Source: a virus
Taxonomy: Duplodnaviria > Heunggongvirae > Uroviricota > Caudoviricetes
Length of the DNA: 19,461 bases
IMG/VR virus record: IMGVR_UViG_2671180427_000015
Coordinates: 1-19,461 of that record
Direction: 5' to 3' (one strand)
Below, piece after piece: positions 160 through 18,177 of this stretch. How positions within the stretch are numbered: position 1 is the first letter of the stretch; every line of letters begins with the position of its first letter. Below the pieces are notes generated by a model that saw nothing but the letters and a program-made list of their open reading frames with translations, was not told where the DNA came from and did not search any database. Position numbers and translations under genes: made by a program.

Positions 160-702
160 CGAATTTCTCCCGTGTACAGGAACAGAGTTAAAAAGCCGGA
201 ACCGGAATCAAATCACAGGATGACCATCTGCCAGTGGCAGGTCATAAAAAAAAGGCCGCGCCATGCGCAGCCAGAACTCACAAGGAAAATGATAGAAGGA
301 AATAACATTAGTGATGTACGCATGGCGCCTCCCGCTAAGTTCTGCAATGATCAAACAGAACTCGCTACGTGCCCTTAAAACTCGATCATTTAGCCCCTCC
401 AAGGAGGATTCACCATGCGGTTGGTTTTTTAATAAACAGTAAACAAAAAAGTCAAGAATTATTCATTCTGTTCTTTCATCATCGGCCACAGCAATACCAC
501 AATGCCGCAGACCAGAGCGCCATCAGTCAGTACCAACATTATCCTGCTGGTGAAATCCATCATCACCATCACTAAAAGCAGGATCACAACAGCAAGCAGA
601 CACAGTTTATAAAACAATGTTCAGAAAACGCATTCAGCATGCCTAAGGTTCTATTCCTACGAATAGCCAACTTGCAACTTAAAATATTATTTATGCAGCC
701 AA

Positions 703-1461
703 TTAAATTCTGGTCCTTACAATATCAACCTGAAGATTCTTATCTTGTGCTGATTGATAAATCACAAACCTTTTACTACCTGCATTGAAAGAAGTAGACA
801 AAACCAGACAATTATCATAACGAGCAAGAACATAATACCAACCATCATTATAATTAATCATTTCATATTCTTTCTTAAACTGTGGTTTGTAATATCCTGT
901 CAGAAATGAAAAAAGCCAGAAATATGCCACAAAAGCAATCATCACAATCTCAAAAAAATGTTTTTTTATAAATGGCTTATCATAGAAGCATGATACCGAT
1001 AAAAATCGCCCATAAGATCTTATCGAAATTGTAACCGCCAGCGCAATCGCTGCTGACAGTAGCAAAAGAGGTACCTGAATCTTCTGTCTCAATATAGAAA
1101 ACTCAATAATTGCCGGCACAAACAATAATTCCACAGCAAAATAAAGGCGAAATACATTTAGCTCTTGCATAGAATGTTTTCTTTTCACTGCGAAAAAGAA
1201 TACAACACCAATACCCCAACCGATAAGAAATATAGCAATGACGATAACTGCAAAAAATAAACTTCTGGCAACATCATCAACACCTGCACCTACAATCCAC
1301 CATGGGAAGCCGTAGTAAAAAGAAGTACCCCATCCATAGAAATAAGCACTCCCCCATCCAAGGCATCCCATGTAGGCAATAAAAAGTGAAGAACTCCTGA
1401 GCAGCGCACCATCCTTCATAACCACCCCAATACAAGATGATAACATTGGCTTACAACTCAT
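703..1461 (-). CDS. Polytopic inner-membrane protein of unknown function (about 5 hydrophobic helices plus a ~60-aa soluble C-terminal tail); moron in the late operon
   Basis: 252-aa ORF in markedly AT-rich DNA just downstream of Q/pR' on the same strand; several long hydrophobic stretches (e.g. LFFAVIVIAIFLIGWGIGVVFFFAV, FFEIVMIAFVAYFWLFSFL). No clear Shine-Dalgarno at the first ATG; true start may be an internal Met (e.g. MKDGALL). Confidence 0.55.
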   Translation of the reverse strand: MSCKPMLSSCIGVVMKDGALLRSSSLFIAYMGCLGWGSAYFYGWGTSFYYGFPWWIVGAGVDDVARSLFFAVIVIAIFLIGWGIGVVFFFAVKRKHSMQELNVFRLYFAVELLFVPAIIEFSILRQKIQVPLLLLSAAIALAVTISIRSYGRFLSVSCFYDKPFIKKHFFEIVMIAFVAYFWLFSFLTGYYKPQFKKEYEMINYNDGWYYVLARYDNCLVLSTSFNAGSKRFVIYQSAQDKNLQVDIVRTRI

Positions 1462-1627
1462 AACAAAAGCAATTCAATGCCGTCAAGAGGTTACAGGCTA
1501 AAAAAACTCTATTACATTGCAGTCAGCATGTTTACTACACAAATACAATTCAGAGCATAAAAACTACTCGGCGGCAGGTTATTGAGACTCATCAATGACA
1601 TGTAAAAAACGCCCATTATTGGTGTCA

Positions 1628-1656
1628 AGTTTCCCCAAAGTTATTCAAAAAGTCAA
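1628..1656 (-). promoter_or_regulatory. pR'-like late promoter with Q-utilisation region
   Basis: Minus strand reads TTGACT-17 nt-GAAACT then TTGACACCAATAATGGGCG, collinear with my recollection of lambda pR' (TTGACT...TAAATT TTGACTCAACGATGGG); lies 40 nt downstream of the Q stop. The -10 hexamer is degenerate. Confidence 0.45.
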
Positions 1657-1698
1657 TATTATGCCGTTAATATGTTGCCATCCGTGGCAATCATGGCG

Positions 1699-2322
1699 CT
1701 AACGTGTGATCGCATTCAAAATGTTGTCTGCGATTGACTCTTCCTTGTGGCATTGCACAACCAGAGCGTCATACAGCGGCTTAACAGTGCGTGACCAGGT
1801 GGGTTGGGTAAGGTTTGGGATTAGCATCGTCACAGCGCGATATGCGGCGCTTGCTGGCATTCTTGAATAACCGACGCCTTTACATCTTCCGCACTCTTTC
1901 TCAGCAACTATCCCCCACTGCTCTGTTTTGGCTATATCAACCGCACGGCCTGTACCGTGGCAATCTCTGCATCTTGCGCCCGGCGTAGCGGCACTACGGC
2001 AATAATCCGCATAAGCGAATGTTGCGAGCACTTGCAGTACCTTTGCCTTAGTATTTCCTTCAAGCTTTGCCACGCCACGGTATTTCCCCGATACCTTGTG
2101 TGCAAATTGCATCAGATAGTTGATAGCCTTTTGTTTGTCGTTCTGGCTGAGTTCGTGCTTACCACAGAATACAGCCATTCCGAATCCGGCTTGTGATTGC
2201 GCCATCCCCATAGCAGCCATCACATCAGTACCGGAAAGAGAGTCAGAAGCCGTGGCCCGTGGTGAGTCGCTCATCATCGGGCTTTTTGGCGAATGAAATT
2301 TAGCTACGCTTTCGAGTCTCAT
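1699..2322 (-). CDS. Q: Late-gene antiterminator Q
   Basis: 207-aa translation matches recalled lambda Q over its length; sits immediately upstream of the pR'-like promoter and overlaps the ninI stop by 4 nt. Confidence 0.9.
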
Positions 2323-2984
2323 GCGCCTTCTCCCTGTACCTGAATCAATGTGAGATTTCCGCAGAACACTGCCCCAGTATCGATATACATCTGGTTGGCA
2401 AATTTGAGTGGTTTCACTGCTGGCGTATGACCAAAGATAAACGTGTCCGCGCCTTTAATTTCTTTAACGATCCCGTCTTGTGAGTTGCTGATTCGTTCGC
2501 GGTTCCAGATTACCTGCTGATGATCAACTGGCTTTCCAAATTCGTATTCGTCACAAGGATAATCGGCGTGGCAGATGACATATTTTTTACCTTTGCTCAC
2601 CAGTTCGATGATTAACGGAAGTTCTTCTGCTTTATGGGCAAGAGCTTTAGCCAGAATTTCTTTGTCGTAATCGAGATTAAAGAACCAGCCACCGCCATTA
2701 AGCAGCCAGTGATTAACGTTTCCACGCTCTGATAAGCCATCAATCATCATTTGCTCATGGTTTCCACGTACAGCTCTGAACCAGGGGAATGTGATTAATT
2801 CCAGGCATTCAACGTTCTCTGCACCACGATCAACCAAATCGCCCACCGAGATAAGCAGGTCTTTTTTGTTGTCGAATCCAATCGTATCCAGTTTGTTCAT
2901 CAGGTTCGTGTAGCATCCGTGCAGATCGCCAACTACCCAAATATTTCGGTATTTGCTGCCATCAATTCTTTCGTAGATATTCAT
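2319..2984 (-). CDS. ninI: NinI (Nin221) Ser/Thr protein phosphatase
   Basis: 221 aa; PPP-family metallophosphatase motifs visible in translation (GDLHG, GDLVDRG, GNHE); matches recalled lambda NinI. Confidence 0.9.
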
Positions 2985-3595
2985 GCAGCCTCACTTCTGC
3001 TGTTTCGCAGTTTTTTAAGTTTCTGTTGATACTCCGCCTTGATGGTCCTGCACTCTTCGACAGTCCAGCGATGGCGGTTATGGTTTGATTCGATTTCGTC
3101 TACTGCTTCCTGCCCGATGCGGCTAATCAGTTCGACGCGATACGGAACGAGATTTCCGCTTTTGTGCTGGTTGCACACCACGCATTGCTTGTGAATATTG
3201 CGTTCATCAAATCGGAGTTGAGGTGCCGCAGCAGTTGTCCGGTAATGTCCGGCATCCCACTGAGCAGACGTGAGCGTTCCGCACGAGATACATGGTAAGT
3301 CGCGGTCTCTTTCTCTGATGAAGGCGTTTACGGCTTGTTGGGCTTGTTTAATCCAGTAACTGCGGGGCTTTAAGGCGAGTTTTCGAATCTTAAGTTTATC
3401 TTTCTGTTTCTGCTCCTCTCGTCGTCGTTTCTTCTCTGCTGCTTTTTCCGCTTTTTCGCGTTCTTTACTTCGTCGTTCGAGTGCTATCTTGGTTCCACAC
3501 TCTGGAGAGCACCACCACTGATTAGCGAATGCAGGGTGAAACCATTCCCGACATTCATCGTTTTTACATCGTCTTCGCGCTGGTTTAGCCATCAT
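2981..3595 (-). CDS. ninG: NinG (Rap) recombination-associated structure-specific endonuclease
   Basis: 204 aa, Cys-rich N-terminus and lysine/glutamate-rich linker; matches recalled lambda NinG. Directly abuts ninI, so lambda ninH is absent. Confidence 0.9.
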
Positions 3596-3755
3596 CTTCT
3601 TCCTCGTGCATCGAGCTATTCGAATCGCTCATCAGCTCTGCACAGCAGTGCTCACACACGTGAACTTCCAGCACATGCAGCTTCTGACCGCAATTAGCGC
3701 ACGTTAAAGCCCGCTCGACGCTTTCTTGTTCGTAACTTCGATTTGGGTCAATCAC
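3585..3755 (-). CDS. ninF: NinF-like small protein
   Basis: Translation ...[37 protein letters not shown]... matches recalled lambda NinF. Start placed at GTG 3753..3755 (GAGGA 8 nt upstream, GTGA overlap with ninE stop); the longer ORF to 3797 is the alternative. Confidence 0.65.
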
Positions 3756-3934
3756 CTTGTATTCCTCGCACGATGTCTTAGCCACCGGATATCCCACAGG
3801 TGAGCCGTGTAGTTGAAGGTTTTTACGTCAGATTCTTTTGGGATTGGCTTGCGTTTATTTCTGGAGCGTTTCGTTGGAAGGTATTTGCAGTTTTCGCAGA
3901 TTATGTCGGTGATGCTTCGTCGCTGTCGTCTCAT
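3752..3934 (-). CDS. ninE: NinE-like protein
   Basis: 60-aa translation [60 protein letters not shown] matches recalled lambda NinE; start chosen inside the 90-aa track ORF, overlapping the methyltransferase stop. Confidence 0.8.
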
Positions 3935-4458
3935 GCAGCCCTCCTGACGCCCTGCCCGATCGCCATCAATGCCGCTTTGGATACGGTAGTAAACATCCGT
4001 CGAGGACTGATGAACGGTCGCCAAATCAGCAGCATGGAGCCTTTGCTGTTTCCCTTCTTCTCCAGCCCTGTCGATGGTTCGATAAAATTAATCCGTCCAT
4101 CAGTGATAATACGAACTTCGTCAACACTCTCCAGAGCCTTGCTGAACCATCCGACAGACATATCCTCTGGCACAAGCATCACTACCGTCTGTCGCTGTTG
4201 TATACACTGCTCAGCGGCTTTTTCCACCCACGGCCTGATATTGCTGTACGGTGGGTTATTCCAGATTGCACCGTGGCTTACCCACTCAGAATTGAGCGCG
4301 TCGTCGTCCTCAGTTAGCCAGTGAGCGCACAGAGCGTTTTTGTCGCTCGCTGCCGAATCCAGCCAGAATCCAAACTCAATATCCAGTGCATCAAAAAGCC
4401 AAAGCGGCGTTTGCCAGCAGTCCTTGTCGTGTGCTGGCGTATTTGATTTGATAGTCAT
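3931..4458 (-). CDS. Orphan phage Dam-like DNA N6-adenine methyltransferase (occupies the lambda ninC/ninD position)
   Basis: Translation contains the N6-adenine MTase catalytic motif NPPY ([10 protein letters not shown]) and a WQTPxxLF-type N-terminal motif; start at ATG 4456..4458 in an ATGA overlap with the ninB stop. Confidence 0.7.
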
Positions 4459-4895
4459 GCAGCCCGATCTCCCCATCGCGCTTTCCATTCGAGAGCCAGT
4501 CGCGCTTCGTCTGACCACTTAACGCCACGCTCTGTACCGAATGCCTGTATAAGCTCTAATAGCTCCGCAAATTCGCTTACACGCATCCTGCTGGTTGACT
4601 GGCCTATTACCACAAAGCCATTCCCGGCAAGGTTAGGAACAACATCCTGCTGCTTTAATGCTGCGGTAAACACACACTTCCAGCTTTCTGCATCCAGCCA
4701 GCGACCATGCCATTCAACCTGACGAGAGACGTCACCTAAGCAGGCCCATAGCTTCCTGTTTTGGTCTAAGCTGCGGTTGCGTTCCTGAATGGTTACTACG
4801 ATTGGTTTGGTTGGGTCTGGAAGGATTTGCTGTACTGCGTGAATAGCGTTTTGCTGATGTGCCGGAGATCGAATTTCAAAGGTTAGTTTTTTCAT
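4455..4895 (-). CDS. ninB: NinB (Orf) recombination mediator
   Basis: 146 aa from MKKLTFEIRSPAHQQ..., matching recalled lambda NinB; GGAGAGGG Shine-Dalgarno upstream; the track ORF begins 6 codons earlier. Confidence 0.85.
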   Translation of the reverse strand: MKKLTFEIRSPAHQQNAIHAVQQILPDPTKPIVVTIQERNRSLDQNRKLWACLGDVSRQVEWHGRWLDAESWKCVFTAALKQQDVVPNLAGNGFVVIGQSTSRMRVSEFAELLELIQAFGTERGVKWSDEARLALEWKARWGDRAA

Positions 4896-4901
4896 GACTT
4901 C

Positions 4902-4932
4902 CCTCTCCCCCAAATAAAAAGGCCTGCGATTA
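4902..4932 (-). terminator. Intrinsic terminator, tR2-like, between ren and ninB
   Basis: On the minus strand a GC-rich 7-8 bp stem (GGCCTGC/GCAGGCC, loop GGTAATC) followed by TTTTTATTT. Confidence 0.6.
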
Positions 4933-4968
4933 CCTGCAGGCCTGTGATTAGCTCAGTGATGTAGATGG

Positions 4969-5259
4969 TCATCTTTTAACTCCATATACCGCCAATATCC
5001 GTTTCATCGTGGCACTCTGGCGACACTCCTTAAAAATCAGGTTCGTGCTCATCTTTCCTTCCCGTTCTTCCTTGGTAGCAAACCGGTAATACACCGTTCG
5101 CCAGACCTTACCTTCGATAACCAGAAGACCTGCCCGTGCCATTTTAGCCGCGGCCTGATTTATGCTGGTTACTGTTGCGCCTGTTAGCGCGGCAACGTCC
5201 GGCGCACAGAAGCTATTATGCGTCCCCAGGTAATGAATAATTGCCTCTTTGCCCGTCAT
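4969..5259 (-). CDS. ren: Ren
   Basis: 96-aa translation matches recalled lambda Ren; positioned between P and tR2/ninB. Confidence 0.85.
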   Translation of the reverse strand: MTGKEAIIHYLGTHNSFCAPDVAALTGATVTSINQAAAKMARAGLLVIEGKVWRTVYYRFATKEEREGKMSTNLIFKECRQSATMKRILAVYGVKR

Positions 5260-5957
5260 ACACTTGCTCCTTTCAGTCCGAACTTAGCTTTAATTTCTGC
5301 GATCTTCGCCAGCGCCTGAACACGATTTAGAGGTCTGCCGCCCATGACAGGAAGTTGTTTTATTGGTTCAGGTATCGTCTCACCACGGTTAATTCGCGCT
5401 GTCATACAGGTCAGTTCATCGGCAGCCTTGCGTCGTAATTCCGCGTCAGTCAGCGCATTGGCCCGCATGTTCTGGTACAGGTTGGTAACCAGCCAGTAGT
5501 GCGCGTTCGATTTCCACGGATAAGACTCTGCATCCGGATACAGGCCTCGCTTCCGGCAATACTCGTAAACCATATCAACCAGCTCGCTGACGTTTGGCAG
5601 TCCGGCGATAACGGATGCTTCTTCCCGGCACCATGCAACAAACTGCCCGGGTGATGGCAGAAATGGTCGATTCTGCCGACGGGCTACGCGCATTCCTGCG
5701 TTAACCTGTTCCATTGTGGTGATCCCGTTTTCCCGGAAAGCCAGAACCCACTGGCGGCGGATTTCGTTCAGTTCGTTCTGGTCACGGTTAGCCAGGCTCG
5801 CCGGGAAAGTTGCCAGTAACTGGCTGAACACACCGTTGATGATCTGCGCTACCTGCTGTACCTGAGGCTTTTCGTCGTACTGTTCCGGCATGTTGTTGGC
5901 GATCCGACGCATCTGCTCACGGTCAAAGTTAACCATCTGTGCGGCGATGTTTTTCAT
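5256..5957 (-). CDS. P: Replication protein P (DnaB helicase loader)
   Basis: 233-aa translation matches recalled lambda P; 4-nt overlap with O stop. Confidence 0.9.
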   Translation of the reverse strand: MKNIAAQMVNFDREQMRRIANNMPEQYDEKPQVQQVAQIINGVFSQLLATFPASLANRDQNELNEIRRQWVLAFRENGITTMEQVNAGMRVARRQNRPFLPSPGQFVAWCREEASVIAGLPNVSELVDMVYEYCRKRGLYPDAESYPWKSNAHYWLVTNLYQNMRANALTDAELRRKAADELTCMTARINRGETIPEPIKQLPVMGGRPLNRVQALAKIAEIKAKFGLKGASV

Positions 5958-6853
5958 AAATCCACCCCGTAAATCCAGTCAGTGTTTGTCAGGTCGAGTT
6001 TTGGTTTGCAGGCTGTCACGCCTGCCTGTTGCTTGTTACGGTTGATTTCGAGCTGGGTCCACTTGTCGCGGAGTTTGGCCGGGCTCAGCACGTTACCGGA
6101 CCAGAAGTTGTCCTGGCATGCCCAGCGGAACAGTACACACATGTCGCGATGGTTACGTCCGTCACGTTCACGCATCAGGCGGATATCGTTAGCCCACCCT
6201 GCAAAATTCGGTTTTCTGGCTGATGGCGCGATGGTCTTCACCATGTCAAACATCCACTCTGCGGCGGTCAGATCTTCTGCTGTCCCCCACCTGCTGCCGC
6301 TCTGAATTGCAGCATCTGGTTTCTCCACAGAAAGATCGTTTTCTGGCTGGTCAGAGGATTCGCCTGAATTCTCTGACGAATAATCTTTTCTTTTTTCTTT
6401 TGTAATAGTGTCTTTTGTGTCCCCCTGTTTTGAGGGATAGCAATCCCTCAATTTGAGGGATGTTTTATCCCTCGTTTTAGGGGATTTTCCCTCGTTTTGA
6501 GGGATACACCATTCTGAGATGTTTTTATTTGGTCCAAACATGCCGCCTTGCTGCTTGATAATATTCATTCTGACGAGTTCTAACTTGGCTTCATTGCACC
6601 GTTTGACGGGTAACTTTGTAATCTCGCTAAGTTGAGAATCGGTGATTCTGTCCATTGGTTTATTCCACCCATAGGTTTTACGCAGAATGGCAAGCAGCAC
6701 TTTAAACTGTCGCTTGGTCAGATCTGCGCCTGAATAAGCCTCAAGCAGCATATTTGATAGTCTGACGTAACCATCATCGAGATCTGCCACATTACGCTCC
6801 TGTTCGGCAAAGTTACCTCTGCCGAAGTTGAGTATTTTTGCTATATTTGTCAT
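5954..6853 (-). CDS. O: Replication initiator O
   Basis: 299-aa translation matches recalled lambda O; contains ori iterons internally. Confidence 0.9.
   Translation of the reverse strand: MTNIAKILNFGRGNFAEQERNVADLDDGYVRLSNMLLEAYSGADLTKRQFKVLLAILRKTYGWNKPMDRITDSQLSEITKLPVKRCNEAKLELVRMNIIKQQGGMFGPNKNISEWCIPQNEGKSPKTRDKTSLKLRDCYPSKQGDTKDTITKEKRKDYSSENSGESSDQPENDLSVEKPDAAIQSGSRWGTAEDLTAAEWMFDMVKTIAPSARKPNFAGWANDIRLMRERDGRNHRDMCVLFRWACQDNFWSGNVLSPAKLRDKWTQLEINRNKQQAGVTACKPKLDLTNTDWIYGVDL
6379..6506. repeat. Origin of replication (ori lambda type): four iterons plus adjacent AT-rich segment inside the O gene
   Basis: Four tandem ~20-bp units each containing an inverted TCCCTC...GAGGGA pair between about 6418 and 6506, flanked at 6379..6417 by a T-rich stretch (TCTTTTCTTTTTTCTTTTGTAATAG). 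Confidence 0.8.
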
Positions 6854-6885
6854 AATGACTCCTGTGGATTGATCCAGTAATTCCC

Positions 6886-7182
6886 TCAGAATTGCATATC
6901 AATTTGCTTAAAATCCTCGGTGGCAGCCGGGGATTTTTTCTTTGTGATTTCATCAAGCGCATACTTAAAAGCCCTGCTAATCGGACTGATGTCTGATGCC
7001 ATTCCGAAAGCACACAAGACCGAAGCAATAAATCTCCAGTCCGTTCTGCTTATCTTCGATTCATGACAGCCAATCATCTTTGCCAAACCGCGCTGTGTAA
7101 GCGTTGATAGGTTGATGAGTAAATCTGTTTCTGCGCGATCAACGTCACGCTGTGATAGTTTGCTGTAACTTGTTCGTTCCAT
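6886..7182 (-). CDS. CII-family lysogeny transcriptional activator (not the lambda allele)
   Basis: 98 aa; C-terminal ...KKKSPAATEDFKQIDMQF resembles lambda CII C-terminus (...KKRPAATERSEQIQMEF); located directly downstream of cro and nutR. Confidence 0.7.
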   Translation of the reverse strand: MERTSYSKLSQRDVDRAETDLLINLSTLTQRGLAKMIGCHESKISRTDWRFIASVLCAFGMASDISPISRAFKYALDEITKKKSPAATEDFKQIDMQF

Positions 7183-7268
7183 TTCTTAATATTTCCAATA
7201 GTGAATTGTTAGTTGACAGGTATGCGTGGAAACGCATATGGCCTTAGTTGGTCAGATATCTTGGGACT

Positions 7269-7313
7269 CGCTTTTCAGCGACGTAGGACGAATGTCCGTT
7301 GTTACAAAGAGCG
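7269..7313 (-). promoter_or_regulatory. nutR-like N-utilisation site (boxA plus boxB hairpin)
   Basis: Minus strand reads CGCTCTTTGTAACAA (boxA-like) then, 18 nt later, CGCTGAAAAGCG (short stem with GAAAA-containing loop), between cro and cII. Confidence 0.5.
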
Positions 7314-7323
7314 GCTCCGCTTA

Positions 7324-7539
7324 TTAAGCGGCTTTGTGTTCCGGCGGGAACACGTCATCAAGACTTACTTTTGCGCCTAACTTGTTTAGGCACGCAACAA
7401 GAGCACGGCATGTTTTAAGGTCTGGGAAGCGACGACCAGATTCCCAATGTCCGATAGCTCCCTGTGTGCATCCAACTGCTTTAGCAAGTTTCGTTTGAGA
7501 GATATTCAGTGACTCTCGATATTTTCGTAGGTTGCTCAT
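7324..7539 (-). CDS. cro: Cro-like HTH repressor (not the lambda allele)
   Basis: 71 aa from internal Met (MSNLRKYRESLNISQTKLAKAVGCTQGAIGHW...) with GGAGGA Shine-Dalgarno at 7543..7548; divergent from cI across an operator region. The 128-aa track ORF would overlap the operators and cI. Confidence 0.75.
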   Translation of the reverse strand: MSNLRKYRESLNISQTKLAKAVGCTQGAIGHWESGRRFPDLKTCRALVACLNKLGAKVSLDDVFPPEHKAA

Positions 7540-7570
7540 ATGTCCTCCGTAGTAACCACGAATAAAAAAA

Positions 7571-7639
7571 TACAATATGTACTCACCAAACACAAGTAAA
7601 AATACATATTGTGCATGGATGGTTCCAGTACAGAGCGTA
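7571..7639. promoter_or_regulatory. Right operator/promoter region (candidate OR sites with divergent pR and pRM)
   Basis: Three related 11-bp elements of form TAC-N5-GT(A/G): TACAATATGTA (7571..7581), TACATATTGTG (7603..7613), TACAGAGCGTA (7629..7639), lying between divergent cro and cI starts. Confidence 0.5.
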
Positions 7640-7656
7640 ATAATAAGGATATGAAA

Positions 7657-8310
7657 ATGAAATGGTATGAACTGGCTAGATCCAGAATGAAAGAGCTCGG
7701 CATAACTCAAGAGAAGTTAGCCGAAGAGCTAGGTATGACGCAGGGTGGAATTGGACACTGGTTGCGCGGATCTCGTCATCCATCTCTTAGTGATATTGGT
7801 GTGGTGTTTAAATACCTTGGTATTGATAACATATCATTCAACCACGACGGGACATTTTCACCTGTTGGCGAATACTCATCGGCCCCAGTTAAAAAACAAT
7901 ATGAGTACCCTGTTTTTTCTCATGTTCAGGCTGGGATGTTCTCTCCAGAACTCAGAACCTTTACCAAAGGCGATGCGGAGAGATTGGTAGGCACAACCAA
8001 AAAAGCCAGTGACTCTGCATTCTGGCTTGAGGTTGAAGGTAACTCAATGACCGCACCAACAGGTTCCAAACCTAGTTTTCCTGACGGGATGTTAATTCTG
8101 GTTGACCCTGAGCAAGCTGTTGAGCCCGGCGATTTCTGCATAGCCAGACTTGGTGGTGATGAATTTACCTTCAAGAAACTGATCAGGGATAGCGGTCAGG
8201 TGTTTCTACAGCCACTAAACCCACAATACCCAATGATCCCATGCAATGAGAGTTGTTCCGTTGTTGGGAAAGTTATCGCTAGTCAGTGGCCTGAAGAGAC
8301 GTTTGGGTGA
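7657..8310 (+). CDS. cI: CI prophage repressor, mosaic: non-lambda N-terminal HTH domain fused to lambda-type S24 (LexA-like) C-terminal domain
   Basis: C-terminal ~130 aa ([19 protein letters not shown]...EVEGNSM...FKKL...[12 protein letters not shown]) matches recalled lambda CI; N-terminal ~85 aa is unrelated to lambda CI. Start placed at ATG 7657 (AAGGA 7 nt upstream); the track ORF starts at 7609. Confidence 0.85.
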
Positions 8311-8380
8311 TGAAGGGCTAAATGTCTCCTAATAAAAACAGCAATCATTTGAAATTATTAATAATTATAGAGGTTTAGTC

Positions 8381-9379
8381 TTGGAAATCAGCACGGCGGT
8401 TATTCATTCCGAAGAAGATGCTTTGCGTTTTGTTGAGATGTACATCGCTGGGCAAGATCTTCCTGATGGAATATCATTTGAAGGGTGGCCTAACTTAACC
8501 TTCCGTCTTACTGGTGACAAATTTCATGGCAGTTTGACTCCTTCTGTCATGAAGGGTTTTGTTGAAATGCAGGCCCAAATAAACCGAGCTTATGCATTGT
8601 TAAAGTACGGAGTTCCTGACCCAAGAAAGCTTTCAAAAGAAGAGAAGGAAGCTATCGAAATTCAGGTGAATGTTGAGAATGGCTCGTCCTTGATAGAAGT
8701 TAATATGGATGGGTTCATGGGTGAGGTTATACAAACTGCGGTGAGTAAAGTGGGCCCTCAAGAGATCGTTATTACAGTTTTAGGGGTCGCTCTTATATGG
8801 GGCGGCGTCGTCCTATTCAAAAAATACCTAGAAGACCGCAAAGAGATTCGCATGGCAGAAGTAAAAAGCGAGTCTGAGCGTGAACACCTTGCGACCATGC
8901 GCTTCATGTCTGAGCAGGAAACAAAACGAAGTGAATTATTGACTCAGATTATTAGCGAAAAACCCAAGCTAGACAACATGGAAAGACTTGCTCATGACGC
9001 AAAAACCGACATAGTTAAATCATTTGTCAAGGCTGATACAGCTCAGATTGATGGCGTTGTATTGGATGCAGATCTATCCAAAACCCTCACTACAAATGCA
9101 AGGCGGAAATCAATGGAGATCCGCCTTGATGGAAATTATCGCATTGAAAAGGTTGACTCCACTGATCCAGAGAGCTTCAAAGTGCAAGTGAGAAATGTTG
9201 ATTCCGATCTAAGAATATCGTGCATAGTACAAGATGTTTTTCTCGACGCATCCGAGCATAAAAAAGCTCTTCAGCAAGCTGAGTGGGATAGAAAACCAGT
9301 TCATTTGTCAATCAACGCAAAAGAACTAGATGGTGAAATAAAGTCCGCGATAATACTTTATGTCAAAGAGATAACATAA
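8381..9379 (+). CDS. Immunity-region cargo protein of unknown function with one central hydrophobic helix (in the position lambda uses for rexA-rexB)
   Basis: 332-aa ORF with TTG start 7 nt after AGAGG; AT-rich; 70 nt downstream of cI on the same strand and followed by an intrinsic terminator; hydrophobic segment IVITVLGVALIWGGVVLF mid-protein; no similarity to RexA/RexB that I can recognise. Confidence 0.6.
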   Translation: MEISTAVIHSEEDALRFVEMYIAGQDLPDGISFEGWPNLTFRLTGDKFHGSLTPSVMKGFVEMQAQINRAYALLKYGVPDPRKLSKEEKEAIEIQVNVENGSSLIEVNMDGFMGEVIQTAVSKVGPQEIVITVLGVALIWGGVVLFKKYLEDRKEIRMAEVKSESEREHLATMRFMSEQETKRSELLTQIISEKPKLDNMERLAHDAKTDIVKSFVKADTAQIDGVVLDADLSKTLTTNARRKSMEIRLDGNYRIEKVDSTDPESFKVQVRNVDSDLRISCIVQDVFLDASEHKKALQQAEWDRKPVHLSINAKELDGEIKSAIILYVKEIT

Positions 9380-9386
9380 TCCTCAT

Positions 9387-9412
9387 CCCGGCCTCAGCGC
9401 CGGGTTTTCTTT
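9387..9412 (+). terminator. Intrinsic terminator ending the cI-cargo transcription unit
   Basis: CCCGGC-CTCAGC-GCCGGG hairpin followed by TTTTCTTT, 8 nt after the ORF stop. Confidence 0.6.
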
Positions 9413-9601
9413 GCCTCACGATCGCTTCACCTAAAAACACATAACCAATTGTATTTATTTGAAAATAAATAGATACAACTCACTAAACCACGCAATTCTG
9501 ATCTCTCCTTACATCGCCGAGGCAATACACCCATGCTAAAAAACAATACTATTAAATACAAAGCGTTGTAAAAAACCACCTCGTTTTAAGAACAAATTGT
9601 A

Positions 9602-9630
9602 TTGATAAAGCAAAATACATATCGTACTAT
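9602..9630 (+). promoter_or_regulatory. pL-like promoter with overlapping operator
   Basis: TTGATA -17 nt- TACTAT; the element TACATATCGTA (9616..9626) matches the OR-type TAC-N5-GTA sites and overlaps the spacer/-10. Confidence 0.45.
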
Positions 9631-9676
9631 TTAACCATCAGCAGGACGCTGGAAGCCAAACGGAACAAACTGGCAG

Positions 9677-9722
9677 GCTCTTTAAACAACGTCGAACTCT
9701 CGACTACGTGGCTGAAAAGCCA
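9677..9722 (+). promoter_or_regulatory. nutL-like site (boxA plus boxB hairpin)
   Basis: GCTCTTTAAACAA (boxA-like) followed 19 nt later by TGGCTGAAAAGCCA (4-bp stem, TGAAAA loop), upstream of N. Confidence 0.5.
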
Positions 9723-9819
9723 GATCACCCAACCACATGAGCTGTGGGATGCAATGCCGAAGCAACCGTCTAGGAGTAGCTTCGAGATTGCATCGCCAAA
9801 GTTTATTCGGGAGGAATCT

Positions 9820-10092
9820 ATGTCCAGAAAAACAGAATTTAAAGGCACCGCAGCTTCTCGCCGTAGAGCTCGTCGCGCAAATCTGCAAAGTCAGGAGGCG
9901 ATTAGCTCCGACAAACTACACAGGCCAACCCCCTCACGAGTGGTCTTGCAATGCAAACGCAAACCAGCAATGAGAGCAGAAGTAATAACACTGACAACGT
10001 TGACCAGAAAATATGAAGGCTCAACTTGTCTTCCAAATGTAGCTCTTTACGCGGCAGGCTACAGGAAATCAAAACAACTGACAGCAAGGTGA
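9820..10092 (+). CDS. N: N-like transcription antiterminator (arginine-rich motif; not lambda N)
   Basis: 90 aa from ATG 9820 (GGGAGG upstream); N-terminal arginine-rich motif GTAASRRRARRANLQ; first gene after pL/nutL. C-terminus resembles what I recall of the P22 gene 24 product, but that recollection is unverified. Confidence 0.7.
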   Translation: MSRKTEFKGTAASRRRARRANLQSQEAISSDKLHRPTPSRVVLQCKRKPAMRAEVITLTTLTRKYEGSTCLPNVALYAAGYRKSKQLTAR

Positions 10093-10150
10093 CTTGTGTT
10101 GATCGCCAGAAAATGAAATTAGGCATCAAACCACTTATTTGAGGTGATAT

Positions 10151-10237
10151 ATGGAAGAAGAATTTGAAGAGTTCGAAGAGCATCCTCAGGATGTGATGGA
10201 ACAATACCAGGACTATCCTTATGACTACGACTATTGA
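10151..10237 (+). CDS. Small acidic protein, lambda orf28-like
   Basis: 28 codons (MEEEFEEFEEHPQDVMEQYQDYPYDYDY) with GAGGTG Shine-Dalgarno; overlaps the ral start as lambda orf28 does. Confidence 0.5.
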   Translation: MEEEFEEFEEHPQDVMEQYQDYPYDYDY

Positions 10238-10445
10238 TAAAAATCAATGGTGTGGACAATTCAAGCGATGCAATGGATGCAAGCTGCAATCGGAATGCAT
10301 GGTTAAGCCTGAAGAAATGTTTCCTGTAATGGAAGATGGGAAATATGTCGATAAATGGGCAATACGAACGACGGCAATGATTGCCAGAGAACTTGGTAAA
10401 CAGAACAACAAGGCTGCCTGGTGGTGGCCTTTATTTTTGGCATAA
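10221..10445 (+). CDS. ral: Ral restriction-alleviation protein
   Basis: First 66 aa match recalled lambda Ral (MTTTIDKNQWCGQFKRCNGCKLQSECM...); this ORF reads on for 8 more codons (WWWPLFLA) before the stop. Confidence 0.8.
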   Translation: MTTTIDKNQWCGQFKRCNGCKLQSECMVKPEEMFPVMEDGKYVDKWAIRTTAMIARELGKQNNKAAWWWPLFLA

Positions 10446-10603
10446 ACAACAGAATAAACACTGCACTGTGTATTCATTCCAACAAGTGAATACACGGAGC
10501 AATGTCGCTCGTAACCAAACAGGAGCCGACTTGTTCTGATTATTGGAAATCTTCTTTGCCCTCCAATATGAGGGCGATTTTTTATCTGTGAGGATATGAA
10601 CAG

Positions 10604-10972
10604 ATGTCAAACATCAAAAAATACATCATTGATTACGACTGGAAAGCATCAATAGAAATTGAAATCGACCATGACGTAATGACAGAGGAAAAACTTCACC
10701 AGATTAATAATTTCTGGTCAGACTCTGAATACCGACTCAATAAACACGGCTCTGTATTAAATGCTGTATTAATCATGCTGGCGCAACATGCTCTGCTTAT
10801 AGCAATTTCAAGCGACTTAAATGCATATGGTGTTGTGTGTGAGTTCGACTGGAATGATGGAAATGGTCAGGAAGGATGGCCTCCAATGGATGGTAGTGAA
10901 GGAATAAGAATTACCGATATCGATACATCAGAAATATTTGATTCAGATGATATGACTATCAAGGCCGCCTGA
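10604..10972 (+). CDS. ea10: Ea10 (Ssb)-like early protein
   Basis: 122-aa translation matches recalled lambda Ea10 in size, position (between ral and cIII) and sequence. Confidence 0.7.
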   Translation: MSNIKKYIIDYDWKASIEIEIDHDVMTEEKLHQINNFWSDSEYRLNKHGSVLNAVLIMLAQHALLIAISSDLNAYGVVCEFDWNDGNGQEGWPPMDGSEGIRITDIDTSEIFDSDDMTIKAA

Positions 10973-11044
10973 GCGCGGCGTTACCGCATACCAATTACGC
11001 TTCACTCGAGGCGTTTTTCGTTATGTATAAATAAGGAGCACACC

Positions 11045-11209
11045 ATGCAATATGCCATTGCAGGGTGGCCTGTTGCTGGCTGCCCTTCCGAATCTTTACT
11101 TGAACGAATCACCCGTAAATTACGTGACGGATGGAAACGCCTTATCGACATACTTAATCAGCCAGGAGTCCCAAAAAATGGATCAAACAATTATGGCTAT
11201 CCAGACTAA
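11045..11209 (+). CDS. cIII: CIII (FtsH/HflB protease inhibitor)
   Basis: 54-aa translation [54 protein letters not shown] with AAGGAG Shine-Dalgarno; not in the ORF track (<60 aa). Confidence 0.85.
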   Translation: MQYAIAGWPVAGCPSESLLERITRKLRDGWKRLIDILNQPGVPKNGSNNYGYPD

Positions 11210-11321
11210 ATTCACTATCGCCACTTTTATTGGCGATGAAAAGATGTTTCGTGAGGCCGTCGACGCTTATAAAAAATGGATATTAATACTGAAACTGAGA
11301 TCAAGCAAAAGCATTCACTAA
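11178..11321 (+). CDS. kil: Kil (host cell-division inhibitor)
   Basis: 47-aa translation [47 protein letters not shown], the in-frame 3' part of the 89-aa track ORF; overlaps the cIII 3' end as in lambda. Confidence 0.8.
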
Positions 11322-11396
11322 CCCCCTTTCCTGTTTTCCTAATCAGCCTGGCATTTCGCGGGCGATATTTTCACAGCCATTTTCAGGAGTTCAGCC

Positions 11397-11693
11397 ATGA
11401 ACGCTTATTACATTCAGGATCGTCTTGAGGCTCAGAGCTGGGCGCGTCACTACCAGCAGATCGCCCGTGAAGAGAAAGAGGCAGAACTGGCAGACGACAT
11501 GGAAAAAGGCCTGCCCCAGCACCTGTTTGAATCGCTATGCATCGATCATTTACAACGCCACGGGGCCAGCAAAAAAGCCATTACCCGTGCGTTTGATGAC
11601 GATGTTGAGTTTCAGGAGCGCATGGCAGAACACATCCGGTACATAGTTGAAACCATTGCTCACCATCAGGCTGATATTGATTCAGAGGTATAA
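11397..11693 (+). CDS. gam: Gam (RecBCD inhibitor)
   Basis: 98-aa translation matches recalled lambda GamS; CAGGAG Shine-Dalgarno. Confidence 0.9.
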
Positions 11694-11698
11694 AACGG

Positions 11699-12484
11699 AT
11701 GAGTACAGCACTCGCAACGCTGGCAGGGAAGCTGGCTGAACGTGTCGGCATGGATTCTGTCGACCCACAGGAACTGATCACCACTCTTCGCCAGACGGCA
11801 TTTAAAGGTGATGCCAGCGATGCGCAGTTCATCGCATTGCTGATCGTCGCCAACCAGTACGGCCTTAATCCGTGGACGAAAGAAATTTACGCCTTCCCTG
11901 ATAAGCAGAACGGCATTGTTCCGGTGGTGGGCGTTGATGGCTGGTCCCGCATCATCAATGAAAACCAGCAGTTTGATGGCATGGACTTTGAGCAGGACAA
12001 TGAATCCTGTACATGCCGGATTTACCGCAAGGACCGCAATCATCCGATCTGCGTTACCGAGTGGATGGATGAATGCCGCCGCGAACCATTCAAAACCCGC
12101 GAAAGCAGAGAAATCACGGGGCCGTGGCAGTCGCATCCCAAACGGATGTTACGGCATAAAGCCATGATTCAGTGTGCCCGTCTCGCCTTCGGATTTGCTG
12201 GTATCTATGACAAGGATGAAGCCGAGCGCATTGTCGAAAATACCGCATACACTGCAGAACGTCAGCCGGAACGCGACATCACTCCGGTTAACGATGAAAC
12301 CATGCAGGAGATTAACACTCTGCTGATTGCCCTGGATAAAACATGGGATGACGACTTATTGCCGCTCTGTTCCCAGATATTTCGCCGCGACATTCGCGCA
12401 TCGTCAGAACTGACACAGGCCGAAGCAGTGAAAGCTCTTGGATTCCTGAAACAGAAAGCCACTGAGCAGAAGGTGGCTGCATGA
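11699..12484 (+). CDS. bet: Bet (Red-beta single-strand annealing protein)
   Basis: 261-aa translation matches recalled lambda Bet throughout. Confidence 0.95.
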
Positions 12485-13161
12485 CACCGGACATTATCCT
12501 GCAGCGTACCGGAATCGACGTGAGAGCTGTCGAACAGGGGGATGATGCGTGGCACAAATTACGGCTCGGCGTCATCACCGCTTCAGAAGTTCACAATGTG
12601 ATAGCAAAGCCCCGCTCAGGAAAGAAGTGGCCTGACATGAAAATGTCCTACTTCCACACCCTGCTGGCTGAGGTTTGCACCGGTGTGGCTCCGGAAGTTA
12701 ATGCTAAGGCGCTGGCCTGGGGAAAACAGTACGAGAACGACGCCAGAGCCCTGTTTGAGTTCACTTCCGGCGTGAATGTTACTGAATCCCCGATCATCTA
12801 TCGCGACGAAAGTATGCGCACCGCCTGCTCTCCCGATGGTTTATGCAGTGACGGCAACGGCCTTGAACTGAAATGCCCGTTTACCTCCCGGGATTTCATG
12901 AAATTCCGGCTCGGTGGTTTCGAGGCCATAAAGTCGGCTTACATGGCCCAGGTGCAGTACAGCATGTGGGTAACGCGAAAAGATGCCTGGTACTTTGCCA
13001 ACTATGACCCACGAATGAAGCGTGAAGGCCTGCATTATGTCGTGGTTGAGCGGGATGAAAATTACATGGCGAGTTTTGACGAGATGGTGCCGGAGTTCAT
13101 CGAAAAAATGGACGAGGCACTGGCTGAAATTGGTTTTGCATTTGGGGAGCAATGGCGATGA
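12481..13161 (+). CDS. exo: Exo (Red-alpha 5'-3' exonuclease)
   Basis: 226-aa translation matches recalled lambda Exo; 4-nt overlap with bet. Confidence 0.95.
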
Positions 13162-13340
13162 AGCATCCTCACGATAATATCCGGGTAGGCACGATCACTT
13201 TCGTCTACTCCGTTACAAAGCGAGGCTGGGTATTTCCCGGCCTTTCTGTTATCCGAAATCCCCTGAAAGCACAGCGGCTGGCTGAGGAGATAAATAATAA
13301 ACGAGGGGCTGTATGCACAAAGCATCTCCTGTTGAGTTAA
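13158..13340 (+). CDS. orf60a: orf60a-like protein
   Basis: 60 aa from the second in-frame ATG (ATGA overlap with exo stop); matches recalled lambda orf60a. Confidence 0.6.
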
Positions 13341-13504
13341 GAACGAGCATTGAGATGGCACATAGCCTTGCTCAAATTGGAGTCAGGTTTGTGCCAATAC
13401 CAGTAGAAACAGACGAAGAATTTCATACGTTAGCCACATCCCTTTCACAAAAGCTGGAAATGATGGTGGCGAAAGCAGAAGCAGATGAGAGAGACCAGGT
13501 ATGA
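13313..13504 (+). CDS. orf63: orf63-like protein
   Basis: 63-aa ORF in the lambda orf63 position; sequence consistent with recollection. Confidence 0.6.
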   Translation: MHKASPVELRTSIEMAHSLAQIGVRFVPIPVETDEEFHTLATSLSQKLEMMVAKAEADERDQV

Positions 13505-13580
13505 CAACCACGGAATGCATTTTTCTGGCAGCGGGCTTCATATTCTGTGTGCTTATGCTTGCCGACATGGGACTTGTTCA

Positions 13581-13796
13581 ATGACACCTCAGCAGGAAAA
13601 CGCCCTTCGCAGCATTGCCCGTCAGGCTAATTCTGAAATCAAAAAAGCCAGACAGCAGTTTCCGGATAAAAACGTCGATGACATTTGCCGTAGCGTACTG
13701 AAGAAGCACCGCGAAACGGTAACGCTGATGGGATTCACACCGACTCATTTAAGCCTGGCAATCGGCATGTTAAACGGCGTCTTTAAGGAACGATGA
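13581..13796 (+). CDS. orf61: orf61-like protein
   Basis: 71 aa from MTPQQENALRSIARQANSEIKKARQQF...; placed at the internal ATG, which overlaps (ATGA) the stop of a 27-codon upstream ORF. Confidence 0.55.
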   Translation: MTPQQENALRSIARQANSEIKKARQQFPDKNVDDICRSVLKKHRETVTLMGFTPTHLSLAIGMLNGVFKER

Positions 13797-13817
13797 ACAT
13801 GAAAAGCAAAATCATCA

Positions 13818-13842
13818 GGGAGCTACAGGCTCCTTTTTTATT
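13818..13842 (+). terminator. Intrinsic terminator (tL-type) after orf61-like
   Basis: GGGAGC-TACAG-GCTCC(U) hairpin followed by TTTTTTATT. Confidence 0.55.
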
Positions 13843-13894
13843 ATTCGCATTCACCCTCAAGCGTATTAACCAACAATTCAGGGATTAATGGAAG

Positions 13895-14116
13895 ATGGCA
13901 GACATCATTGATTCAGCATCAGAAATTGAAGAATTACAGCGCAACACAGCAATAAAAATGCGCCGCCTGAACCACCAGGCTATATCTGCCACTCATTGTT
14001 GTGAGTGTGGCGATCCGATAGATGAACGAAGACGCCTGGTCGTTCAGGGTTGTCGGACTTGTGCAAGTTGCCAGGAGGATCTGGAGCTTATCAGTAAACA
14101 GAGAGGTTCGAAGTGA
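13895..14116 (+). CDS. TraR/DksA-family C4 zinc-finger protein
   Basis: 73 aa with two CxxC pairs (CCECG...CRTCASC) in the spacing typical of the TraR/DksA zinc finger. Confidence 0.65.
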   Translation: MADIIDSASEIEELQRNTAIKMRRLNHQAISATHCCECGDPIDERRRLVVQGCRTCASCQEDLELISKQRGSK

Positions 14117-14520
14117 GCGAAATTAACTCTCAGGCACTGCGTGAAGCGGCAGAGAAAGCCGGTGAAGATAAGTGGCAGGCTAAAAAAATAAATGGTGATT
14201 TTTTCGTTATTCGTCACGGTAGTTATACAAGACAGCATGGCTACACATCGTATCAACCCATTGCGGAGATTGATTGTAAGCCAGTCCGGGATTTTGTTGC
14301 CAAGGCTAATCCGGCTACCGTGCTGGAATTACTGGATGAACTGGAAGCAGCAAAAAAGCGCATTGCAGAACTGGAAGCGCGGGAAATACTGCTCCCGGAA
14401 CGTAGCAGCATGCTTCATCGAACAGATTTTCACGATGATTACCAAACGGTAATGGCATACAAAGTTTCTGAAGTCATCGATGCAATCCGCGCTACTGGCA
14501 TTCGCATCAAAGGAGAGTGA
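14113..14520 (+). CDS. Ea22-like protein (shorter than lambda Ea22)
   Basis: GTG start in a GTGA overlap with the upstream stop, GAGAGG Shine-Dalgarno; N-terminus MSEINSQALREAAEKA... and C-terminus ...GIRIKGE agree with recalled lambda Ea22 termini; central coiled-coil-like LELLDELEAAKKRIAELEARE. Confidence 0.6.
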   Translation: MSEINSQALREAAEKAGEDKWQAKKINGDFFVIRHGSYTRQHGYTSYQPIAEIDCKPVRDFVAKANPATVLELLDELEAAKKRIAELEAREILLPERSSMLHRTDFHDDYQTVMAYKVSEVIDAIRATGIRIKGE

Positions 14521-14521
14521 G

Positions 14522-15277
14522 ATGATTCACTACCACGGTGGGCCTATTACTCCTGATACGTGCGCAATGAGAGCATGGAAAGGGCGACATGCGTTTATCA
14601 GTTTTGCGCATTCAGGCCAGATCAATCTCGCGGCTGAATACTGTCAGTCGTTCGCGCTGGACAACGGTGCATTCACCGCCTGGAAAGCAGCTGGCAAAAA
14701 CAAAATCGACTGGAGCGATTACTACGAGTTTGTTGCTCGCTGGAAGAATCACCCAGGATTCGATTTTGCCATTATCCCGGATATTATTGATGGCGGAGAG
14801 GAGGAAAATGATGCGCTTCTGAATGAGTGGCCTCACGGAAAACTAGCTGGCGTTCCAGTGTGGCACATGAATGAAAGTGACGCGCGATTTATTCATTTGT
14901 GCAATGAGTTTCCGCGAGTGGCTATCGGTAGTTGTGGCGACTATGACGTAAAGCGCCCAACTCTTGCGGTAGCCAGAATGAAAGACCTGATTCGTCACAT
15001 TGTTGATGGGCATGGTCAGCCGGTTACGAAACTACATGGATTGCGCATGTTAAATCCGCTGATATTCACAAAATTACCCTTAGCCAGCGCAGATAGTACG
15101 AACGTCGCTCGAAACATCGGTATTGATAAAGCCTGGTCTGGGGCTTATGCACCTGCAAGTAAAGAGACACGCGCAGCATTAATGGTAGAACGGATTGAGG
15201 CACACAATAGCCCTGGTTCTCTTGCGTATTGTGAACAACGCGACCGCTTTGAAATGCAATTGCAACTAGCAGTTTAA
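14522..15277 (+). CDS. Candidate queuine tRNA-ribosyltransferase-fold protein (DpdA-like 7-deazaguanine DNA transglycosylase candidate)
   Basis: 251 aa from ATG 14522 (AGGAG 6 nt upstream). Five collinear segments resemble recalled E. coli Tgt motifs: LDNGAF (TDSGGF), FAIIPD (MIFDEC), VAIGS (YAVGG), LHGLRML (YLMGVG), ADSTNVARN (FDCVMPTRNARN). No zinc-binding C-terminal subdomain. Functional call unverified. Confidence 0.5.
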   Translation: MIHYHGGPITPDTCAMRAWKGRHAFISFAHSGQINLAAEYCQSFALDNGAFTAWKAAGKNKIDWSDYYEFVARWKNHPGFDFAIIPDIIDGGEEENDALLNEWPHGKLAGVPVWHMNESDARFIHLCNEFPRVAIGSCGDYDVKRPTLAVARMKDLIRHIVDGHGQPVTKLHGLRMLNPLIFTKLPLASADSTNVARNIGIDKAWSGAYAPASKETRAALMVERIEAHNSPGSLAYCEQRDRFEMQLQLAV

Positions 15278-15287
15278 GGACTAACAA

Positions 15288-16085: not shown

Positions 16086-16199
16086 TAGTGAACTATTATA
16101 TCTATTTGTATTAAAAGAGTTTTTATAAAATAAATCTCCCAAAGCATGTAAAAACACTGTTAATCTTAACGTGTGTGAAACGTGAAGAGAGGTGTTGAA

Positions 16200-16481: not shown

Positions 16482-16501
16482 TAATATGAACAAGTAACTA
16501 T

Positions 16502-16557: not shown

Positions 16558-16569
16558 TGGCGATGATAA

Positions 16570-16752: not shown

Positions 16753-16776
16753 GCGTGTAATTGCGGAGACTTTGCG

Positions 16777-18131: not shown

Positions 18132-18177
18132 AGGCTTCAACGGATTCATTTTTCTATTTCATAGCCCGGAGCAACCT

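Follow-up and report, generated by a model that had tools for sequence, protein, structure and literature searches.

The window, by which we mean the whole stretch of DNA analysed (19,461 nt; positions 1 to 19,461 of IMG/VR virus record IMGVR_UViG_2671180427_000015), carries a lambda-like E. coli prophage in the orientation opposite to the lambda map. By blastn against the lambda genome (NC_001416), lambda-like DNA was found at 1624-3927 (Q and part of nin, 96.7-97.5% identity), 4455-6947 (ninB, ren, P, O and the 3' end of cII, 96.4%), 10127-14154 (ral through exo, 97.8%) and 16435-18131 (xis and int, to the attP core at lambda 27724, 97.4%). Past 18131 the sequence continues into the ybhC flank of E. 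coli, so the window represents a prophage at the lambda attachment site. The same search identified 3928-4454, 14155-16434, N, the rex slot and most of cII as not lambda-like. The ORFs of cI, cro, cII, N, O, P, Q, int and xis are intact. A gene at 15288-16085 looks split. An earlier description of the rest of the early region as lambda-like holds for Q, part of nin, ninB-ren-P-O, cIII-to-exo and xis/int (96-98%) but has to be qualified, because cII, N, the rex slot, the Dam methylase segment and the ea region differ.

Between 6948 and 10126 blastn detected two lambda-matching patches only, 7900-8311 (93.4%) and 9387-9507 (90%), and found no lambda DNA homology at 6948-7899 or 9508-10126. Relative to lambda, the boundaries of the imported cassette lie at ~6947 (3' end of cII) and ~10127 (past N). 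From left to right, this region holds a non-lambda allele of cII that is part of the cassette (6886-7182, minus strand, 98 aa; Pfam Phage_CII, E 6e-32), cro on the minus strand, a 111-bp cro-cI spacer, cI on the plus strand, an ORF of 332 aa (8381-9379, plus strand) belonging to a conserved family and occupying the position of rexAB, a lambda-like patch (9387-9507, plus strand, 90% to lambda 35824-35708) and, as the right-hand part of the cassette, a non-lambda allele of the antiterminator gene N (9820-10092, plus strand; Pfam N_peptide, E 3e-32). The rexAB genes of lambda are absent. A strong hairpin terminator (9387-9404) followed by a T-run lies in the lambda-like patch and closes the cI operon.

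cI (7651-8310, plus strand) encodes a repressor of 219 aa, or of 217 aa if translation starts at the second in-frame ATG (7657). Pfam searches identified an HTH_3 domain (PF01381, residues 11-58, E 1.8e-10) and a Peptidase_S24 domain (PF00717, residues 87-209, E 3.6e-28). The protein is laid out as an HTH_3 head (residues 1-83) and a lambda-type tail (residues 84-219) consisting of the linker and the S24 self-cleaving/oligomerisation domain. Homology to lambda sets in within the linker, at codon Y84 (nt 7900; equivalent to Y101 in mature lambda CI), and extends over 7900-8310 (93.4% to lambda 37637-37226 by blastn). Upstream of 7900 the two genes are unalignable, and the heads are ~18% identical. 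From codon 84 onward, 134 of the 136 amino acids are identical to lambda CI, and the ungapped alignment from 7900 to the stop codon contains 27 differences over 411 nt, of which 25 are synonymous. The sole amino acid changes are at lambda W129 (to L) and S131 (to G), which leaves no difference in the part that corresponds to lambda residues 132-236.

The junction codon Y84 is located ten residues ahead of the Ala-Gly cleavage site (lambda A111-G112). The cleavage site VQA/GMF, the GNSM motif (lambda Ser149) and the TFKKL motif (lambda Lys192) are all kept and identical to those of lambda. With its HTH head, S24 domain, Ser/Lys dyad and Ala-Gly site, CI belongs among the LexA/CI-type self-cleaving phage repressors. 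The identity of residues 132-236 to lambda CI suggests that RecA-stimulated self-cleavage would lead to induction. For the CI head, a search for a solved structure of a close relative found none, the best match having an E value of 2.4e-4.

cro (7324-7539, minus strand) encodes a protein of exactly 71 aa with an HTH_3 (XRE-type) domain (Pfam, E 1.7e-12), not of the lambda Cro type. Cro and the CI head are paralogues (37% identical residues in a 62-residue alignment, E 1e-13), and the recognition helices of the two proteins, TQGAIGHW in Cro and TQGGIGHW in CI, are nearly identical. The similarity of the helices argues that both proteins would read the same sites. In 434 and P22, Cro and the repressor head are likewise paralogous HTH_3 domains with near-identical recognition helices and share partially symmetric sites.

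The spacer between cro and cI (7540-7650) contains three putative operators of 17 bp. OR1 (AAATACAATATGTACTC, 7568-7584) and OR3 (CAGTACAGAGCGTAATA, 7626-7642) show the exact pattern TAC-N5-GTA, at 7571 and 7629 respectively, and OR2 (AAATACATATTGTGCAT, 7600-7616) shows TAC-N5-GTG at 7603. All three correspond to putative operators in AP005153, the record of an Stx1-converting phage, in which three putative 17-bp operators in OR, three in OL and promoters are annotated. Upstream of N, a matrix scan and one-mismatch pattern matching revealed OL1 (9613-9629), OL2 (9588-9604) and OL3 (9554-9570), the last with a weak right half-site. The twelve half-sites gave a putative consensus of nAnTACAw, that is, TACA-N3-TGTA, which equals the TAC-N5-GTA pattern of the first-pass annotation.

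One-mismatch matches to TAC-N5-GTA occur at 0.33 per 100 bp window-wide, whereas three are found in the 111-bp OR spacer; three further ones lie at 9557-9626, upstream of N. Exact matches number 5 in the window against 1.75 expected, a count reached by 3 of 200 shuffles. As this enrichment is marginal, the argument for the operators rests on clustering and conservation. We compared five switch regions from other contigs whose CI proteins are ~80% identical to that of the window. The three OR cores and the flanking GCATGGATG and GCGTAATAAT are invariant in the five diverged switches, and the site centres and spacers vary. In each of four diverged loci, a matrix built from the window sites recovered exactly three sites in the cro-cI spacer and another three ahead of N, with OR1 as the top-scoring site in the relatives. 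The centre-to-centre spacings are 32 and 26 bp in OR and 25 and 34 bp in OL, and this asymmetry is retained in the diverged relatives. Since OR1 and OR2 are 32 bp apart, compared to 24 bp in lambda and 25 bp between OL1 and OL2, lambda-style pairwise cooperativity at OR1-OR2 is not assured.

Taken together, the features that the first-pass annotation had proposed for the switch, namely a CI C-terminal domain matching lambda, a non-lambda N-terminal HTH domain, a 71-aa non-lambda Cro and three non-lambda OR elements of the TAC-N5-GTA type, were borne out; the breakpoint that it had placed inside cI near residue 85-90 does lie in the linker, and the cI-lambda alignment puts it at codon 84. With respect to the lambda immunity, the window has the C-terminal domain of lambda CI and lacks the lambda head, Cro and operators.

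Promoters of the two divergent genes can be proposed from the positions of these sites. PR probably consists of TTGTGT (7595-7590) and TATTTT (7572-7567) on the minus strand, separated by 17 bp, with OR1 overlapping the -10 element. PRM probably consists of TGGATG (7616-7621) and AATAAT (7639-7644), also separated by 17 bp; OR2 would abut its -35 element, and OR3 would cover its -10 element. Both fell below the threshold of a consensus promoter scan, and their positions were assigned by hand with the backing of conservation. Judging from the spacing of PRM, transcription of cI would start at ~7651, the A of the ATG, and the mRNA would therefore be leaderless, like that of lambda. The centre of OR2 would then lie at about -43 from the start. 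Toward N, the promoter scan identified a PL-like sequence, TTGATA-17-TACTAT (9602-9630), which is covered by OL1 and OL2.

In the accessible literature we came across no data on binding, footprinting or immunity for a repressor of the window type (CI2c, see below). The six 17-bp operators of VT2-Sakai have been used in EMSA with lambda CI, not with the cognate CI (PMC10742460), and the PA2/PA8 paper from the Koudelka laboratory contains no operator data for a CI2c-type repressor.

The cassette closely matches that of an immunity type known from Shiga-toxin phages. The cII-cro-OR-cI block (6846-8308) is 97.5% identical to AP005153, with the head part and the tail part of cI both at 97.6%, and the OL-N region (9377-10156) is 94.4% identical to the same phage. 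CI stops just short of full-length identity to a known repressor: 218 of its 219 residues are the same in the CI proteins of the Stx1-converting phage and Stx2 II, and the sole difference from AP005153 is at G114 (vs S). Cro is identical to that of AP005153 at 70 of 71 residues (K17 vs T). OR1 and OR2 each match their AP005153 counterparts at 16 of 17 positions and OR3 at all 17, the differences being outside the TACA/TGTA cores; three-site OL clusters were recovered in both the window and AP005153. Megablast with 7150-8400 matched 189 phage records, 57 of which cover at least 80% of the query at ~97.7% identity. Among these 57 are the Stx1-converting phage, Stx2 II, VT2-Sakai, Nil2, 2851, 1717, YYZ-2008 and the PA series, and also the lambda-like phages ev207, ev017 and PhiR57_1. 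Of 5426 complete E. coli genomes, 2061 had matches to parts of 6800-9800. Smith et al. (2012) defined the type as CI2c/Cro4 and explicitly described the mosaic with a shared carboxy-terminus (PMC3430580). Fagerlund et al. (2022) discussed CI diversity with no mention of the linker junction. The mosaic is already published; Shiga-toxin phages and E. coli genomes commonly carry it, and it is ordinary.

How old the linker junction is can be judged from the tail. The first-pass annotation called the region a natural immunity-swap hybrid and took recombination in the linker as the event that made the prophage one. Had this been so, the prophage would derive from an ancestor with lambda immunity, the tail of cI would be resident, and the head, cro and operators would be imported. 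Over 7900-8210, however, the window differs at 24 sites from lambda (92.3% identity) and at 18 from L005, a lambda-immunity prophage of E. coli O103 ML775, but at 3 from the Stx-type cI (99.0%), which indicates that the lambda-like tail came with the cassette and not from the resident backbone. The backbone on both sides of the cassette is indeed lambda-like, as a resident tail would require, but at 96-98% it is closer to lambda than is the tail (93.4%). The breakpoint of lambda homology at nt 7900 is sharp, yet dozens of phages whose backbones are unrelated have the identical junction. Between L005 and the window there is an unbroken match over 7900-9560 (97%), but the resemblance of this relative to the window is confined, within cI, to the last ~100 nt. 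A recent linker junction was rejected on the informative-site counts over 7900-8210, and we consider descent from a lambda-immunity ancestor by such a junction improbable. The complete cI is of the Stx-phage type, with a tail nearer to that type than to lambda; the repressor is a mosaic relative to lambda, but the junction did not build this prophage. Sequence comparison thus shows the linker junction to be old, shared and ancestral within the CI2c immunity type, and the cassette to have been received whole by the prophage.

To place the junction among related repressors, head and tail of CI were scored separately in 120 homologues. Lambda-type tails (78-98% identity) are paired with heads of 16-100% identity. 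The heads fall into classes at 16-33% (the lambda type and two Salmonella/E. coli types), ~42%, ~50% and 75-100%. In an alignment of representatives, the onset of similarity in every class is at the motif [YF]xYP[VL]F..V.AG; one homologue (P0107) has a second switch inside the tail. Could purifying selection have preserved the S24/oligomerisation tail while the heads diverged by mutation, without any recombination? The S24 domain is conserved in all homologues, with many invariant columns, and the differences from lambda are nearly all synonymous. However, the cI genes of lambda and the window pass from unalignable to 93% nucleotide identity within one codon, and the synonymous sites themselves are mostly common to lambda. 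Moreover, lambda CI shows 18% identity in the head and 98% in the tail, whereas the full-length orthologues P0002-P0007 show ~80% in the head and 79-85% in the tail. This discordance requires exchange and rules out simple conservation. Tail similarity as mere conservation was rejected on the head/tail discordance among the 120 homologues, and divergence free of recombination is hardly credible. By alignment, the CI linker is shown to act as a recurrent exchange point, because homology sets in at one and the same place in at least five classes of heads, and the lambda-type tail to be a module common to at least these five.

That the mosaic is an assembly chimera, or a dead switch in a decaying prophage, is just as hard to credit, and the artefact reading was rejected: the cI of VT2-Sakai has been reported to lose 60 N-terminal residues to a stop codon (PMC3430580) and the window has its split-looking gene, but the same arrangement is present in isolated plaque-forming phages and many independent complete genomes, the switch, replication, antitermination and integration genes listed above are intact, and the operators are conserved.

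A second, younger crossover was located near the 3' end of cI. Across ~8207-8222, the differences between the window and the Stx type rise from 3 over 311 nt to 7 over 100 nt, and those between the window and L005 fall from 18 to 1. The position is approximate, as it is defined by ~8 informative sites. The segment shared by L005 and the window contains the 332-aa ORF, which in L005 lies behind a lambda-type cI (237 aa). Of the 5426 complete E. coli genomes, 9 contain the ORF, with identities of 99.6-99.7%. Across these nine genomes and the window it is preceded by cI genes of the lambda type, the 933W type and the window type; where it follows a 933W-type cI (L006), a lambda-type cI survives beside it only as its final 27 nt. 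The younger crossover at ~8207-8222, as placed by these sites, links the 3' end of cI to a rare gene, the sole mildly new item in the region.

The 332-aa gene is probably co-transcribed with cI. Other members of the immunity type carry in the same slot genes for an NYN-domain protein, a DUF2335 protein, a DUF1828 protein, an SDH-family protease or a HipA-like pair. The 332-aa protein matched no Pfam family, aside from a sub-threshold match to aRib, and had no match in PADLOC. Its family is conserved across Gammaproteobacteria with few members beyond; elsewhere it occupies the Q-lysis moron slot in a Pectobacterium prophage and also lies next to a Type ISP restriction enzyme. In an AlphaFold model (pLDDT 86.8), an alpha/beta domain forms the N-terminal part and a barrel the C-terminal part, along with long helices, and the sequence contains a hydrophobic helix at approximately residues 128-146. 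In a Foldseek search of the PDB, the barrel gave weak OB-fold matches only (best E 8e-3). From position alone, a role in exclusion or defence is a reasonable guess.

We are highly confident that the lysis-lysogeny switch seen here belongs to an E. coli prophage with a lambda backbone in which a CI2c/Cro4 cassette, received whole, replaces that of lambda, that the prophage carries the crossover at ~8207-8222, and that the switch would work as follows. By analogy with lambda and 434, CI dimers would bind the three 17-bp OR operators and the three OL operators via the non-lambda HTH head. Binding would repress PR (cro, cII, O and P) and PL (N). At OR2, which abuts the weak -35 element of PRM, CI probably activates the leaderless cI transcript, and occupation of OR3 over the PRM -10 element would provide negative autoregulation. 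Cro, as a paralogue of the CI head, is expected to read the same operators. The tail should confer dimerisation of the lambda type, pairwise cooperativity, OL-OR looping by octamers and RecA-stimulated self-cleavage at the Ala-Gly site; lambda-type oligomerisation and cleavage are expected because the structured C-terminal domain (lambda 132-236) is identical.

A broader reading of the rex slot is possible but rather doubtful. The conserved lambda-type cI tail and the likewise conserved terminator segment at 9387-9507 may serve as homology arms around a hypervariable cargo slot, and the 332-aa protein, with its N-terminal alpha/beta domain, hydrophobic helix and C-terminal OB-like barrel, may be an undescribed exclusion or anti-phage protein expressed together with cI as rexAB are. 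If the arms do act in this manner, heteroimmune lambdoid phages would swap prophage-expressed genes through them. A corollary concerns the repressors themselves: since the oligomerisation domains of lambda CI and the window CI are identical, mixed dimers or tetramers could arise in double lysogens, and the stability of heteroimmune prophages would then be coupled.

As a whole, the region adds one example to an immunity type that is already catalogued and to the long-known modularity of lambdoid repressors, and in that respect it matters little. It cleanly illustrates the role of the CI linker as a recurrent exchange point, and it shows that a junction which appears sharp against a reference genome can far predate the element that carries it. 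The prophage is predicted to be homoimmune with many Stx phages, which would be relevant to superinfection and to acquisition of toxin phages by the host strain. The practical value is limited to this prediction and to flagging of the gene in the rex position.

Compared to lambda, the window CI has an identical C-terminal domain (from residue 132), cleavage site and Ser/Lys dyad, and the DNA-reading part of the switch differs. Cro is a 66-aa protein in lambda and a 71-aa HTH_3 protein here; the operator consensus is AAATACAAnTTGTATTT in the window and of the TATCACCGnCGGTGATA type in lambda; and the operator spacings are 24/23 bp (OR) and 24/20 bp (OL) in lambda versus 32/26 and 25/34 bp. The centre of OR2 lies at -42 in lambda and, given the proposed PRM start, would lie at about the same place in the window. 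The C2 protein of P22 and the 434 repressor gave weak matches to the window CI only (E 0.02-0.6) and are not closely related to it; the C-terminal domain is that of lambda, not that of 434 or P22. A head/tail exchange of the same kind has been described for CI1a (BP-4795) and CI1b (933W), whose carboxy halves are 100% identical and whose amino ends differ (PMC3430580), but that pair belongs to the 933W-type repressor family.

The Stx-type phages (AP005153, Stx2 II AP005154, VT2-Sakai, 1717, YYZ-2008, Nil2 and 2851) have the same linker junction to a lambda-type tail, and the figure of 97.5% identity for the cII-cro-OR-cI block, given above for AP005153, applies to Stx2 II, VT2-Sakai, Nil2, 2851 and 1717 as well, whose CI and Cro likewise differ from those of the window by one residue each. 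They carry the junction on a short-tailed Stx backbone, whereas the window has lambda-like O, P, nin, red and int at the lambda attachment site, shows no stx, has another gene after cI and belongs to another lineage in the last ~100 nt of cI. Phages that combine a lambda backbone with CI2c-type immunity, such as 2B8 and ev207, are already in GenBank. Escherichia phage 2B8 (LR595859/NC_049952) has a lambda-like backbone, the lambda integrase and the same immunity as the window, and ev207, ev017, 2G7b and PhiR57_1 are grouped with it on these features. 2B8 matches 73% of the window at 97.3%, and its CI head is 100% identical; it differs in that its rex slot is occupied by an NYN-domain gene instead of the 332-aa ORF, and about a quarter of the window is unshared.

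The rexAB position, 3' of cI, is occupied by an ORF of 332 amino acids (8381-9379, + strand) for which no family match was found in Pfam or PADLOC. This cargo ORF belongs to a conserved family, with 122 matches in Enterobacterales, Pasteurellaceae, Pseudomonas and others, and is rare in E. coli (9 of 5426 complete genomes). Its relatives outside this locus are found in prophage moron slots and adjoining a Type ISP R-M gene. The AF2 model (pLDDT 86.8) predicts an N-terminal alpha/beta domain, a hydrophobic helix (residues about 128-146) and long helices; at the C terminus it has a barrel with a weak resemblance to an OB fold. We consider the ORF a candidate exclusion or defence gene.

Copies of the cargo gene that are 99.6-99.7% identical are located after three types of cI: lambda-type, 933W-type and VT2-Sakai-type. 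In the window, a crossover at ~8207-8222, within the tail of cI, joined an Stx-type cI to the cargo lineage. At the locus with a 933W-type cI (L006), the lambda-type cI is reduced to its last 27 nt, which adjoin the cargo gene. On the other side, between the cargo gene and OL3, lies a lambda-like patch (9387-9507; 90% identity to lambda 35824-35708). The patch is conserved among heteroimmune phages, and recombination in the cargo slot may use it as the homology arm on the right. Within this patch there is a strong hairpin terminator (9387-9404), presumably that of the cI operon. Another hairpin, CCGCTTATTAAGCGG (7317-7331), is positioned directly after the stop codon of cro; although classed as terminator-like for the + strand, it may instead be part of the nutR/tR1 region on the - strand.

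Other non-lambda segments also carry genes. A Dam-type N6-adenine methyltransferase gene (3931-4518, - strand; PF05869, E 5.5e-65) is located in the segment 3928-4454, which substitutes for lambda ninC-ninE. Two adjacent + strand ORFs each encode part of a dATP/dGTP pyrophosphohydrolase domain (PF04447): profile positions 1-38 fall in 15288-15533 and positions 45-96 in 15543-16085, which additionally carries DUF551. This split points to a frameshift or a stop within the gene. Two further ORFs, of 252 aa (703-1461, - strand) and 265 aa (14480-15277, + strand), had no match in Pfam. The prophage/host junction at 18131/18132 corresponds to the lambda attP core (lambda 27724) and is flanked by ybhC (18178-19461); at least 80% of the integrase-ybhC junction segment (17600-19461) is covered in 1913 of the 5426 complete E. 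coli genomes.

In the matrix scan, an operator-like 17-mer inside the cargo ORF, TAGTACAAGATGTTTTT (9225-9241), scored as high as OR1; it is probably due to chance.

In the window (OR, 7568-7642; OL, 9554-9629) and four diverged relatives of its switch region (L007-L010), the predicted operators are spaced 32-34 bp (OR1-OR2), 26 bp (OR2-OR3), 25-26 bp (OL1-OL2) and 29-35 bp (OL2-OL3). The asymmetric spacing of the window is kept in all four relatives, whereas the corresponding spacing in lambda is 24/23/24/20, despite an identical cooperativity domain.
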